Positions 8,042-21,281 of a stretch of DNA of 32,000 nt are shown piece by piece. How positions within the stretch are numbered: position 1 is the stretch's first letter; each line of letters begins with the position of its first letter. The translations under genes were made by a program, and so were the position numbers. The DNA comes from Halomicrobium mukohataei DSM 12286 (GTDB lineage: Archaea; Halobacteriota; Halobacteria; Halobacteriales; Haloarculaceae), in contig NC_013202.1 in NCBI RefSeq assembly GCF_000023965.1, forward strand, positions 810,001-842,000. The letters run 5' to 3'. The notes below the pieces were generated by a model. That model ran no database searches. It was not told the DNA's origin and saw nothing but the letters and a program-made list of their open reading frames with translations.

Positions 8042-9010
8042 ATGTCACGGTCGGCACTGGTCGAGAACGTCACGGCGATGCTGGGAGACGCTGGCTTCCT
8101 CGTCAGCGACCGGTGTGCGATTCGGCCGAAGAGCTTCGACGTTGCGGCGCGGCGCGGTGAGGACGTGTTGCTGGTGAAGATCCTGGGCAACATCGACGCG
8201 TTCGACGCCATGACCGGCGCGGAGATGCGACGCCTGGGCACCTACCTGAACGCGACGCCGATGGTCGTCGGGCTCCGGACCCGCGACGAAGAGCTCAAAC
8301 CCGGCGTCGTCTACTTCAGACACGGCGTCCCGGTGCTGTCGCCGGACACGGCGATGGACCTGTTCGTCGAGGAGGTCCCGCCGCTGATCTACGCCGCGCC
8401 GGGCGGGCTGTACGTCAACATCGACAGCGAGGTCCTCGCGGACGCTCGCGAGGATCGGGACTGGTCGCTGGGGCGACTCGCAAAGGAACTGGGCGTCTCC
8501 CGTCGGACCGTCTCGAAGTACGAGGACGGGATGGACGCCTCCGTCGACGTGGCCGCAGAACTCGAAGAACTGTTCGACGCGCCGCTCACGTCGCCGGTCA
8601 GCGTCCTCGACGGGGCCGAGGAAGTTCGCGACGAAGAGGAGACGCCGGAAGATCCGGAGGTGGCTCCCGAAGACGAGTCGCTCGTGACGGTCTTTACCCG
8701 GATCGGCTTCGAGGTCCACCCGACGGACCGAGCGCCGTTCAAGACCGTCTCCGAGAACGAGCACGAGCGCCAACAGGTCCTGACCGGCCGCTCGGAGTTC
8801 ACCAAGACCGCCGAGAAGCGTGCCCGGATCATGTCCTCGGTCGGGGAGGTCACCCGGACCCGCTCGATCTACGTGGTCGACGAACTCAAACGGGAGTCCG
8901 TCGACGGCACCGCCATCATCGAGCAAAGCGAGATGGAGGCCATCGACGACGCCGACGACCTGCGAGACCTGATCATGGAACGGGGCGAGGATCCCGAAGA
9001 AGTTGCGTGA
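8042..9010 (+). CDS. Euryarchaeal putative HTH-type (XRE/Cro-like) transcriptional regulator, about 322 aa
   Basis: ATG at 8042, inside the over-extended 6473..9010 ORF. The acidic protein begins [19 protein letters not shown]. It has a central helix-turn-helix, [23 protein letters not shown]. An AT-rich TATA-like region lies at 7996-8026. Confidence 0.8.
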
Positions 9011-10022
9011 CAAAGGCCGCTCGTCACTGCTCCGAGCAGGACGGAAGTTAGGGCGCGCCGCTGCCGTACGTCTCGTCGAGGTACTCGACGATGTCAGACC
9101 CACCGTTTCCTCCTCGGGTTCGGTCTCTCCGTTCCCGAACCACTCGTCGCAAAACGTGGGCGAAAAGACCGTCCACTCGCTTCGCTCGTGGACGAAGAGA
9201 ATCCTTACGCTGCGCCGCTCCCGTACGTCTCGTCGAGGTACTCGACGATGTCAGACCCACCTTTTCCTCCTCGGGTTCGGTCTCTCCGTTCCCGAACCAC
9301 TCGTCGCAAAACGTGGGCGAAAAGACCGTCCACTCGCTTCGCTCGTGGACGAAGAGAACCCTTACGCTACGGTTCCGTACGTCTCGTCGAGGTACTCGAC
9401 GATGTCAGACCCACCTTTTCCTCCTCGGGTTCGGTCACTCCGTTCCCGAACCACTCGTCGCAAAACGTGGGCGAAAAGACCGCCCACTCGCTTCGCTCGT
9501 GGACGAAGAGAACCCTTACGCTACGGTTCCGTACGTCTCGTCGAGGTACTCGACGATGTCAGACCCACCTTTTCCTCCTCGGGTTCGGTCACTCCGTTCC
9601 CGAACCACTCGTCGCAAAACGTGGGCGAAAAGACCGCCCACTCGCTTCGCTCGTGGACGAAGAGAACCCTTACGCTACGGTTCCGTACGTCTCGTCGAGG
9701 TACTCGACGATGTCAGACCCACCTTTTCCTCCTCGGGTTCGGTCACTCCGTTCCCGAACCACTCGTCGCAAAACGTGGGCGAAAAGACCGCCCACTCGCT
9801 TCGCTCGTGGACGAAGAGAACCCTTACGCTACGGTTCCGTACGTCTCGTCGAGGTACTCGACGATGTCAGACCCACCTTTTCCTCCTCGGGTTCGGTCAC
9901 TCCGTTCCCGAACCACTCGTCGCAAAACGTGGGCGAAAAGACCGCCCACTCGCTTCGCTCGTGGACGAAGAGAACCCTTACGCTACGGTTCCGTACGTCT
10001 CGTCGAGGTACTCGACGATGTC
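9011..10022. repeat. Tandem array of a 154-bp unit, about 6.6 copies, non-coding, embedded in a convergent intergenic region
   Basis: The anchor gtacgtctcg recurs at 9066, 9223, 9377, 9531, 9685, 9839 and 9993, giving periods of 157, 154, 154, 154, 154 and 154. By eye, the copies starting at 9377, 9531, 9685 and 9839 are identical. The copy at 9223 has 2 substitutions. The copy at 9066 has more substitutions plus a 3-nt insertion. Positions 9011-9065 are a degenerate partial copy. The final partial copy (9993-10022) is the genuine 3' end of the glutaredoxin gene. Confidence 0.95.
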
Positions 10023-10232
10023 GTCGGACTCGGCCATTCCTTCGACGCCGTTGTCGGGGTCGACGAGGACCGGGACGCCGGTCTGGCCCGAGACCTCCTC
10101 GACTTCGGTGCGCTCGTCGTGGGAGCGCGGGACCATGTGGGACTGGTAGTCGAGATCGAGTTCGTCGAGCTTGTCGATCACTTTCGCGCAGTACGGGCAG
10201 CCTTCCAGCTCGTACAGTTCGAGGTTCGTCAT
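9978..10232 (-). CDS. Glutaredoxin (CPYC active site)
   Basis: ATG start, 84 aa. Motifs are LYELEGCPYCAKV and GVPVLVD. The stop is TAA at 9978-9980. Confidence 0.88.
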   Translation of the reverse strand: MTNLELYELEGCPYCAKVIDKLDELDLDYQSHMVPRSHDERTEVEEVSGQTGVPVLVDPDNGVEGMAESDDIVEYLDETYGTVA

Positions 10233-10307
10233 CGAGAGATAGTAGACGCTCGCGGTATATCAGCACCACGGTGGTGTGTGGCGTCCGGACACACCAGCAG
10301 ATCGACC

Positions 10308-11708
10308 TCAGAGACTCGTGAGGATCCCGCTGGTTCGGACGACGAAGTAGACGATGAAGGCGGCGGCGAGGAGCCACTGACCGACCAGCACGTCGTCAAA
10401 CTCTCCCTGTCCGGTCTTGACGATCGGGTAGGAGACGATCCCGGCGGCGATCCCGTAGGCGATCGAGTAGGTGAAGGGCATGACGATGATGGTGAGCGCG
10501 GCCGGCACCGAGTGTGCGAAGTCGTCCCACTGGATGTCGACGACGTTGCGCATCAGCAACACGGCGACGACGACCAGGGCGATGTGGGAGGCGTACTGCG
10601 GGATCGCCGCCGCCAGCGGCACGACGACGAGCGAGGCGAGGAAGAGGACGGCGATGACGAGCGCCGTCAGGCCGGTCCGACCGCCCTCCTCGACACCGGT
10701 CGCGGACTCGATGTACGTCGTCACCGTCGAGGTGCCGAGCATCCCGCCGATCGTCGTCCCGACGGCGTCGGCCATCAGCGGTTTGTCGATGTCGGGGAAG
10801 TCACCGTTCTCGTCGAGGAAGCCACCGGCCTGGCCCACGCCGACGAGCGTCCCGGCCGTGTCGAAGAAGTCCACGAAGAAGAACGTGAACACGATCAACG
10901 CGAAGGAAAAGGCCTCTACGTCGCCGAAGCCGCCGACGAACGCCCCCGCCAGCGGCGCGATGTTGTACTGTGCCTGGGGGATCGACTCGGGTGTGAGCAC
11001 GCCCCGGGAGAAGACGCCGGCGGCGGTCAGTCCCCAGCCGACGAGCGTCGTCGTGAGGATCCCGAGGACGATCGCACCGCGGATCCGCGCCGCGTAGAGG
11101 ACGAACGTCAGGAACAGACCGGCGACCGAGAGGATCGCGACGGGATTACTGGCGATGCTGCCGAGTGCTACCAGCGTCGCCGGGTCGTCGACGACGATCC
11201 CCATCGCCTGGAGGCCGATGATCGCGAGGAAGAGTCCGAGACCAGTCCCGACCGCGAACTTGACTGGTTCGGGAAACAGTTTGATCACGTACTCCCGTGC
11301 GCCGATAGCCGTGAGGACGATGAAGACGACCCCCTCGACGACGATCGCGGCGAGTGCAGTCTCCCAGGGAACGCCCAGAACGCCGATGACGGTGATCGCG
11401 AAGAAGGCGTTGAGTCCGAGTCCCGGCGCGAGGCCGAAGGGCCTGTTCGCGTAGAACGCCATCACGAACATCGCGATCGCGGAGGTGACGATCGTCACGA
11501 CCGCGAGCATCTGGAACACTTCGCCCGGCGTGAACCCGTCGATAGCGATCCCGCCCGGGACACCGTCGTCCGGGAACGCCGTGAGGATCGCGGGGTTGAC
11601 GACGACGATGTAACTCATCGTCAGGAACGTCGTGATCCCGGCCAGTACCTCCGTCCGAACGTCGGTGTCGTGTTCGTCAAGTCCGAAGAATCGTTCGAAT
11701 ACGCCCAT
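10308..11708 (-). CDS. NCS2 family nucleobase permease (AzgA-like adenine/guanine/hypoxanthine type)
   Basis: ATG start, 466 aa, polytopic membrane protein. The N-terminus FFGLDEHDTDVRTEVLAGITTFLTMSYIVVVNP is typical of AzgA-type NCS2 permeases. Confidence 0.85.
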   Translation of the reverse strand: MGVFERFFGLDEHDTDVRTEVLAGITTFLTMSYIVVVNPAILTAFPDDGVPGGIAIDGFTPGEVFQMLAVVTIVTSAIAMFVMAFYANRPFGLAPGLGLNAFFAITVIGVLGVPWETALAAIVVEGVVFIVLTAIGAREYVIKLFPEPVKFAVGTGLGLFLAIIGLQAMGIVVDDPATLVALGSIASNPVAILSVAGLFLTFVLYAARIRGAIVLGILTTTLVGWGLTAAGVFSRGVLTPESIPQAQYNIAPLAGAFVGGFGDVEAFSFALIVFTFFFVDFFDTAGTLVGVGQAGGFLDENGDFPDIDKPLMADAVGTTIGGMLGTSTVTTYIESATGVEEGGRTGLTALVIAVLFLASLVVVPLAAAIPQYASHIALVVVAVLLMRNVVDIQWDDFAHSVPAALTIIVMPFTYSIAYGIAAGIVSYPIVKTGQGEFDDVLVGQWLLAAAFIVYFVVRTSGILTSL

Positions 11709-11786
11709 CTACCTGTCACTCAGTCTTGTCGCTGTTAAACGTGACGAGAACGGCGGCGGCAGGTTAGCGTTTTGATAATTAGACGC

Positions 11787-20591: not shown

Positions 20592-21281
20592 TCACATATC
20601 GCTGTCGTCCCCGTCGTCGCCCTCCGTCCGCTCTTTTTCCGGCAGGACCTCGCGTTCGCGCTCGACGGTCTCTTTGACATCGTCTGCGACCTCCTTTGCC
20701 GTCCCGGTCTTCTCGCGGGCCTCGTCGGCCTTCTCGGTGGCTTCGTCGGCTTTCGCCGTGGCCTCGTCGACGCGTTCGGTCGCTTCACCGACCCGCTCGG
20801 CGGCGTCGTCGGCGGTGTCCGGGTCCGCGTCGGCGACCTTGTCGGTGACCTCGTCGACCTGTTCCGTGGCCTCGTCGACCTCCTTGGCCGCGGTCTCGAC
20901 GTCGGTGGCGGCGTCCTCGACGGTGGCGGCCGTCTCGTCGAGTTCGTCGGCGACGGTCTCGACTTCCTCGGCGGCCTGTTCGAGTTGCTCTGCGGTCTCG
21001 GCGACCGTCTCGGTGCCGTACTCGTAGGCCCGCGCGATGACGACGAACTGGACGATACCCATCAGGACGAACAGCGTGACCGCGATCCCGACGGCGATCT
21101 CGAACGTCGAGACGACGGCGGCACCGAGGTCGACGACCCCGAAGACGAGCAGGGCATAGGCCCCGGCCAGTCCGGCGGTCGCGACGCCGGTCGCACGGGC
21201 AAACTGTCGGTACGCCGACGACTCGTCGAGGACGGCTGCCTGAAACCGAGCGAGCAGCCCGGGACCGGAAGATCGTGACAT
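20592..21281 (-). CDS. Membrane-anchored protein with a long acidic, repetitive helical C-terminal tail
   Basis: ATG start, 229 aa. Two hydrophobic segments are followed by about 130 aa of degenerate repeats such as VDEATEQVDEVTDKV, ERVGEATERVDEATAKADEATEKADEAREK. Confidence 0.65.
   Translation of the reverse strand: MSRSSGPGLLARFQAAVLDESSAYRQFARATGVATAGLAGAYALLVFGVVDLGAAVVSTFEIAVGIAVTLFVLMGIVQFVVIARAYEYGTETVAETAEQLEQAAEEVETVADELDETAATVEDAATDVETAAKEVDEATEQVDEVTDKVADADPDTADDAAERVGEATERVDEATAKADEATEKADEAREKTGTAKEVADDVKETVEREREVLPEKERTEGDDGDDSDM

Follow-up and report, generated by a model that had tools for sequence, protein, structure and literature searches.

REP/BIME, ERIC, Neisseria Correia and pneumococcal BOX are small dispersed, structured extragenic elements that are mostly located in 3' or convergent regions, are transcribed together with the upstream gene and have reported terminator or mRNA-stabilizing effects; BIME and BOX also occur with variable numbers of tandem modules. 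In mycobacteria, the units of the MIRU-VNTR (variable number of tandem repeats) loci overlap the stop codons of flanking genes. Among archaea, the SMR, MITE (miniature inverted-repeat transposable element) and PATE of Haloquadratum walsbyi have been described as transposase-free small mobile repeats; the mobilization of SMRs is unexplained, they reportedly cause no target duplication and insert preferentially into other mobile elements (PMC3119063). Most long-unit satellites of prokaryotes are unique and have been ascribed to replication errors (PMC6749651), and a minisatellite inside a MITE is described for Porphyromonas gingivalis (PMC4596501). Here, we analyzed 32,000 nt of the genome of Halomicrobium mukohataei DSM 12286 (NC_013202.1, positions 810,001-842,000, hereafter the window, to which all positions refer unless stated otherwise), in which an array of 154-bp direct repeats lies between the glutaredoxin gene grx and a convergent regulator gene. 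Each unit consists of X, a copy of the grx 3' end, and of Y, a non-coding part. We regard it as probable that the array is a locus-specific minisatellite, for which a dispersed element arrived with a target duplication of about 45 nt, and that unequal recombination subsequently amplified X plus Y, of which Y would act as a terminator-like module.

The initial annotation of the window, which was made from the sequence alone, had described head-to-tail repeats of 154 bp. Tandem Repeats Finder recovered this array at 9064-10022 with a period of 154, 6.2 copies, 98% matches and 0 indels. The anchor GTACGTCTCG was found exactly at the seven positions reported before (9066, 9223, 9377, 9531, 9685, 9839 and 9993; chance expectation 0.35) and nowhere else in the window. 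With at least two head-to-tail copies of high identity, the structure is a tandem repeat or minisatellite, and it adds about 0.9 kb between the two convergent gene ends. The GC content, previously estimated at about 59%, was measured as 0.59 in the array compared to 0.62-0.69 in the flanks. A CRISPR array had rightly been dismissed, because the units are contiguous, have a 154-nt period and lack unique spacers. Counted from grx on the minus strand, the units p1 (9869-10022), p2 (9715-9868), p3 (9561-9714) and p4 (9407-9560) have the same sequence. Unit p5 (9253-9406) differs from them by 2 substitutions, a G>A in hairpin A and a T>A in the loop of hairpin C, and p6 (9096-9252), the oldest full unit, is 157 nt long with a 3-nt insertion and several substitutions. 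In this register, divergence increases away from grx, next to which the youngest copies lie, and this gradient also agrees with the earlier description.

The array is real and already catalogued, as is evident from CP045142.1 (Halomicrobium assembly GCA_009217585.1), which is identical to the window across 20.2 kb, and from the published satellite at NC_013202.1:819062-819989, for which supplementary files 2 and 3 of PMC6749651 give 6 x 154 bp, a total of 928 bp. The consensus and the two polymorphic positions in the supplementary tables of that study are those of the window array. The entry provides coordinates and consensus without interpretation. Like the prokaryotic satellites or VNTRs collected there, the array is long-unit, intergenic, head-to-tail, restricted to one locus and apparently of different copy number in relatives. 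Unlike in the catalogue entry, its unit is here resolved into a gene 3' end and a copy of a dispersed structured element; this anatomy, the family membership of Y and the comparison of filled and empty sites are new, whereas the array itself was known (PMC6749651). The finding of one full unit each in H. katesii DSM 19301 and in a metagenome contig could indicate that a single unit was expanded or the array mis-assembled in the window. However, the complete assemblies CP045142.1 and NC_013202.1 both contain six full units with the same internal variants, and three unit variants in fixed order are impossible from over-expansion of one copy. Collapse in short-read drafts is likelier, and an assembly artefact is highly improbable.

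On the grx strand, every unit is composed of the 45-nt X, i.e. the last 14 codons of grx and its stop, followed by the 109 non-coding nucleotides of Y (10022-9978 and 9977-9869 in p1). The initial annotation had treated the unit as an intergenic repeat and missed that 45 of the 154 nt are the 3' coding end of grx including the stop. All units start with GACATCGTCGAG...GCGTAA on the minus strand, the grx sense. The X of the first unit (9978-10022, DIVEYLDETYGTVA plus TAA) is part of the functional gene grx (9978-10232, minus strand, 84 aa in the list of open reading frames (ORFs)); the identical protein P0001 carries the Pfam domain Glutaredoxin, and identical Grx is present in three other assemblies. 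The grx gene would stay intact because each unit carries its own last codons and stop. The extra units pose an annotation problem, since each holds a pseudo-copy of the Grx C-terminus together with a stop codon.

At its distal end the array terminates with the partial copy X' (9048-9095, minus strand, 48 nt), which encodes ...DIVEYLDETYGSGAP* and whose first 32 nt are identical to X. The 37-nt spacer S (9011-9047) follows between the X' stop and the stop of the convergent regulator gene (8042-9010, plus strand, 322 aa, Pfam PDDEXK_19 and HTH_3), which bounds the array and is outside the repeat. The C-termini read ...ETYGSGAP* in X', ...ETYGSGAA* in the X part of p6 and ..GTVA* in the active grx, and the endings of X' and p6 resemble the Grx C-termini of other genera (G-S/D-G-A-A). 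The ..GTVA* of the active gene is a derived ending, and X' is probably the ancestral grx 3' end left downstream. The similarity of about 65% to the unit that had been reported for 9011-9065 is clear for 9048-9065, which belongs to X'; for 9011-9047 it is only weak, with a co-linear alignment of S to the start of Y at p about 0.011 and a non-significant local alignment. Two other derivations of the unit were rejected. The similarity of the distal 62 nt of Y to the reverse complement of the regulator 3' end was no more than chance (p = 0.41 and 1.0; local p = 0.22), and a duplication spanning both convergent gene ends is unsupported because the regulator 3' end and Y show no significant similarity. 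A coding reading with a 41-codon GTG ORF per unit ending in the Grx tail was dropped, because compensatory helix changes among the family members result in non-conservative amino-acid changes.

The family of Y was searched by sensitive blastn against plasmid records, and its enrichment on plasmids has to be read in that light. With one unit as query, matches were obtained only via Y, in unannotated megaplasmid gaps of Haloferax, Natrinema, Natronococcus, Halomicrobium salinisoli and H. urmianum. Homologues at unrelated loci in other genera show 73-87% identity to the unit. A Natrinema copy as query detected 25 places in 18 records with 78-92% identity over up to 162 nt. The family occurs on megaplasmids of at least nine haloarchaeal genera, with about 65-110 nt for the structured intergenic element of which the unit has one copy and about 110-200 nt for the conserved non-coding element shared by the genera. 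Y is a copy of a conserved, dispersed, structured element from a family that appears undescribed. Rfam 15 gave no match at gathering score in the window and none with E<=0.1 in 15 plasmid loci, no tRNAs were found, and four short diagnostic motifs of the element occurred in no paper of the searchable literature. Regarding a virus link, a phage collection yielded no blastn match, and exact motifs were missing from viral contigs except for two 19-mers, which the covariance model did not confirm. At E<=10, the only Rfam match in the array region was the KDPG-aldolase motif RF03115 (9021-9104, minus strand, 23.9 bits compared to the gathering score of 54.6, E=0.054), which lies on X' and S, not on Y, and is probably due to chance.

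The family members share a layout, which reads in 5' to 3' direction: a GC hairpin often capped by GAGCGAAGCGAG, T5, an 8-nt segment a, T5, GCGCC, a variable inner hairpin, GGCGG, A5, and GG plus a'. In 20 of 21 copies, the second T-run and the A-run are separated by 38-42 nt, and the Halomicrobium copies have T4/T4/A4 instead of T5/T5/A5. In p1, hairpin A (9967-9942) starts 10 nt past the grx stop and is followed by T4 (9939-9936) and by the rod (9935-9870), in which a, T4, P2, hairpin C, P2', A4 and a' succeed each other; the minimum-free-energy fold of the single sequence gives the same rod. A covariance model of the family scored six matches on the minus strand of the window with 77-85 bits (9853-9971, 9699-9817, 9545-9663, 9391-9509, 9237-9355 and 9080-9198) and no further copy, either elsewhere in these 32 kb or at grx in the relatives. 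The cap GAGCGAAGCGAG or a close variant recurs on several hairpins, e.g. at 1431-1448 of the locus L025, at about 3000-3012 of L020 and at 9960-9949 of the window. It contains GCGAAGC, flanked by potential tandem G.A pairs. The oligonucleotide d(GCGAAGC) forms an unusually stable DNA mini-hairpin, and the cap might be a protein-binding or nuclease-resistant motif.

The helices of the rod are supported by covariation. In an anchor-based test, for which the paired segments were taken by fixed anchors without structure-guided alignment, 27 cells were changed on both sides compared to 11.8 +/- 2.1 in shuffled alignments, and the covariation score was 0.192 compared to 0.075 in shuffles (0/500 reached the observed value; slid controls <=0.098). 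Realignment of 29 copies to the covariance model R1 gave 0.249 compared to 0.127 (0/500; slid controls <=0.087); this alignment is fitted to the model structure and its pair counts lean towards that structure, so that the anchor-based test is the cleaner one. Individual pairs covary, for example as CG12/GC12 and UA13/CG11/GC2, and RNAalifold indicated further covarying pairs in hairpin C, the inner hairpin. Within Halomicrobium, hairpin C is formed by GGTTCGG/CCGAACC or GGTCCGG/CCGGACC, and it shows one compensatory change and one change from G-C to G.U. The fold belongs to the grx-sense strand, because frequent G.U pairs (GU:17 at pair 41-117, UG:7 at pair 4-32) would turn into A.C mismatches if the opposite strand were folded. 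In the T/A helix, 4-5 U-A pairs never vary amid covarying neighbours, which suggests that the T and A runs are needed beyond pairing.

These features separate the element from other small repeats. The rod arms change between copies (CCCAC/GTGGG, CGAAC/GTTCG, GCGTA/TACGT), and such covarying arms are not expected of transposase-binding MITE ends. A MITE-type target duplication of 2-10 bp was likewise not found by eye at the two resolved junctions, the other loci being covered by a screen with a 12-nt minimum. With about 80-110 bp, inverted-repeat ends, a rod-like fold, lack of coding capacity and several copies per genome, the element resembles the SMR, MITE and PATE of Haloquadratum (PMC3119063). 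It differs from SMRs by its location at gene 3' ends, its covarying arms and two insertions with duplications of about 45 nt, a distinction made by description, not by sequence. Its size class, structure and extragenic 3' location are those of REP/BIME, ERIC, Correia and BOX, to which the archaeal element has no sequence relation; furthermore, its tandem module includes host coding sequence, and it bears three invariant T5/A5 tracts.

The genes flanking the element vary from locus to locus, but it is located in 3' regions. The next annotated downstream gene is convergent at 14 of 18 independent loci, and at loci with an upstream stop codon at a distance of at most about 60 nt, the element has the orientation of the gene to which this stop belongs. 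Hairpin A has a covarying stem of 4-7 bp and is followed by T4-T5 in all 21 copies, which corresponds to the sequence pattern of a hairpin-plus-oligo-U terminator. The element most likely acts as a 3'-end module on the grx-sense transcript, in which a GC hairpin, an oligo-U tract and a stable rod would follow each other. In addition, the A-run represents an oligo-T on the opposite strand, and the element could stop transcription from both convergent genes. For Haloferax, archaeal oligo-T terminators and 3' ends with a hairpin plus U-run have been described (PMC7237163). Like those, the element has a GC hairpin and a U-run after a stop codon, and T-runs on both strands between convergent genes. 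Ordinary terminators, however, are not known to be conserved in sequence across unrelated loci and genera or to carry a covarying rod of 65 nt, as the element does. T-runs are scarce in high-GC archaea, and if the terminator role is true, the element would provide them with a portable termination or 3'-end module. The initial annotation had suggested a multi-copy structured RNA or a buffer between convergent genes, and both were reasonable guesses that are compatible with this evidence.

A sense-strand covarying structure with a hairpin and U-run would also be expected of independently transcribed small RNA genes with promoter and terminator in each unit, for which the NsiR1 tandem array of Nostoc is the model. 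In this regard, three Natrialbaceae copies show by eye a TTTATT-like box about 30-35 nt upstream of the conserved block. However, this upstream TATA-like box is not conserved over the family. The longest A/T-only run in the Halomicrobium unit is 4 nt, hence there is no TATA-like box and no promoter per unit. Moreover, the element usually begins within tens of nucleotides of an upstream stop codon. An array of small RNA genes is an unlikely explanation compared to a 3'-end module transcribed with grx.

The comparison of the orthologous region in relatives, proposed in the initial annotation, revealed six full units in H. mukohataei DSM 12286, two in Halomicrobium sp. IBSBa, one in H. katesii DSM 19301 and in a metagenome contig (L012), or none at all, whereby the low numbers come from drafts and short-read data in which repeats may be collapsed. 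IBSBa carries this unit at the corresponding position, in two full copies followed by X', and its Grx is 92% identical; the metagenome contig is of the IBSBa type and has one unit plus X', as has H. katesii. An exact 22-mer of Y was found among the species-representative genomes only in H. katesii and gave one match in JGI metagenomes, at the same locus both times. The unit of H. katesii is chimeric, its 5' part being like p1-p4 and its 3' part like p6, as expected from deletion or recombination between array units or from a collapsed assembly. No array is present at grx in H. urmianum, in relatives with P0003-type Grx and in Halomicroarcula limicola. In the latter, the grx and regulator stops are 37 nt apart, the same distance as from X' to the regulator in the window. 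Therefore, the distal X' plus spacer looks like the original end of grx, and all that lies upstream of it like a later addition. X and X' agree within each lineage, with GAC in mukohataei and GAA in IBSBa; therefore, the copies are being homogenized. The IBSBa lineage (L002 6560-7440; L012) has an extra gene between array and regulator, encoding a protein of 163-214 aa with a twin-arginine-like signal, as well as a very AT-rich stretch, and in L012 a transposase-like ORF lies beside the extra gene. The grx/regulator intergenic region seems to be an insertion hot spot.

A second locus with a comparable architecture was found in Haloferax. In Haloferax alexandrinus and H. lucentense, a 69-nt rod lies between two direct 45-nt copies with a spacing of 114 nt, and the 45-nt segment includes the stop of an upstream ORF of 224 codons. 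The homologous locus on H. mediterranei pHM100, with flanks of 89% identity, has one 45-nt copy and no rod. Haloferax and Halomicrobium thus share the X-Y-X' architecture, with 45 nt for X and 48 nt for X' in Halomicrobium. By eye, the right-hand copy in Haloferax resembles over its first dozen bases the 3' tail of other family members (..AGTGACC) more than the target, which hints that the junction formed within a short similar segment, as would result from template switching. The stop of the upstream ORF is TAG in H. alexandrinus (L018 2967-2969), the corresponding triplet is GAG at the empty site of pHM100 (L038 about 765) and CAG in the duplicated copy; therefore, the ORF end differs between filled and empty sites.

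In the proposed scenario, the element would have entered the grx 3' end in the ancestor of the H. mukohataei/katesii/IBSBa clade. This entry would have duplicated about 45 nt of the target, for which template switching at sites of microhomology is a possible mechanism. Once two direct X copies were in place, unequal homologous recombination or replication slippage between them could have led to (X-Y)n-X', and the most recent expansions would have occurred at the grx end, where the newest, identical units are found. The six-fold amplification was probably neutral or nearly so. The P. gingivalis case (PMC4596501) similarly ties a tandem repeat to a small non-autonomous dispersed element; unlike there, the whole element plus the duplicated target is the repeat unit here. 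A rival reading is a neutral tandem duplication that was entirely local and involved a gene end and intergenic DNA without an identity of its own: the array is unique to one locus (window and species-representative genome), the gradient with identical young copies fits slippage or unequal crossover, and such an origin agrees with the one ascribed to prokaryotic long-unit satellites (PMC6749651). However, Y has homologues at unrelated loci with 73-87% identity, its helices covary, and the model that scores the units with 77-85 bits was built mostly on those other copies. The identity of Y contradicts an anonymous origin, which we regard as unlikely, while the amplification step may still be neutral. 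The initial annotation had considered that a match of the unit to a repeat family would explain the array; this is true for one half, as the array is unique to its locus and the Y core belongs to a dispersed family.

The element could also be a DNA-level site that a protein recognizes as a folded single strand or as a duplex, such as a plasmid maintenance site, a REP-like sequence targeted by a Y1 transposase or a recombination site of the att or attC type; the long flanking repeats would then be duplications like att cores. Archaeal integrases have att cores of about 44 bp, as in SSV1, and the flanking repeats of about 45 nt resemble this size. Tyrosine recombinase genes lie at most 1-2 kb away at three of about 18 loci, the GCGAAGC caps recur, the family is enriched on megaplasmids within a search that covered plasmids only, and two copies flank one ORF in a cassette-like manner in Natrinema versiforme. 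On pNVE500 of this strain (L023 377-550 and 1448-1621), the two copies are 91% identical, have the same orientation and are 1071 nt apart, and the enclosed hypothetical ORF (611-1435) has 274 codons. However, the neighbouring genes are inconsistent between loci, and no attC-like R''/R' consensus or GTTRRRY core was visible by eye. An insert of 69-109 nt does not offer enough room for an attP whose cores are specific to each of two different genes. A role in RNA or termination agrees better with the invariant T/A runs and the pattern of G.U pairs, and a DNA-level site is rather doubtful.

Several points weigh against the proposed origin of the array from an inserted terminator-like element. First, the coupling of insertion and duplication rests on n=2, since about 15 other loci have no flanking direct repeat of at least 12 nt and only the Halomicrobium grx locus and one Haloferax plasmid locus have the long duplication. 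Second, the extent of the target duplication in Halomicrobium can be read in two ways, as 45-48 nt if hairpin A is part of the element or as much as about 85 nt if the S-Y similarity is real. Third, no mobilizing enzyme was identified, and the check for chromosomal copies elsewhere covered only the species-representative genome, with an exact 22-mer, and the 32-kb window, with the model. Fourth, the 1- and 2-unit states come from draft or metagenome assemblies, which are prone to repeat collapse. Finally, termination or RNA stabilization is a function that we infer from the features of the element, and a generic terminator scan (at least 5 T in 8 bases) as well as a generic promoter scan found nothing in the array.

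If the coupling of insertion and duplication is true, it would show how a small mobile element can give rise to a minisatellite and would hint at a novel insertion mechanism. Going further, the rod element might belong to an unrecognized class of archaeal mobile structured elements that insert into gene 3' ends or directly behind them with a duplication of about 45 bp, act as portable bidirectional terminators and seed minisatellites; a fixed duplication length would point to a ruler-type or templated insertion unlike that of insertion sequences or MITEs. We regard this extended proposal as speculative and of low probability.

Two minor observations concern the window at large. All plus-strand frames are open through the array (9003-11738, 9091-10149 and 9188-10321), because none of the plus frames of the unit contains a stop and its length of 154 nt is not divisible by 3; these long spurious ORFs could mislead gene callers. 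Furthermore, overlapping imperfect tandem repeats with a period of 18-21 nt and 74-83% matches are located at 20705-20941, which are likely in-frame amino-acid repeats.

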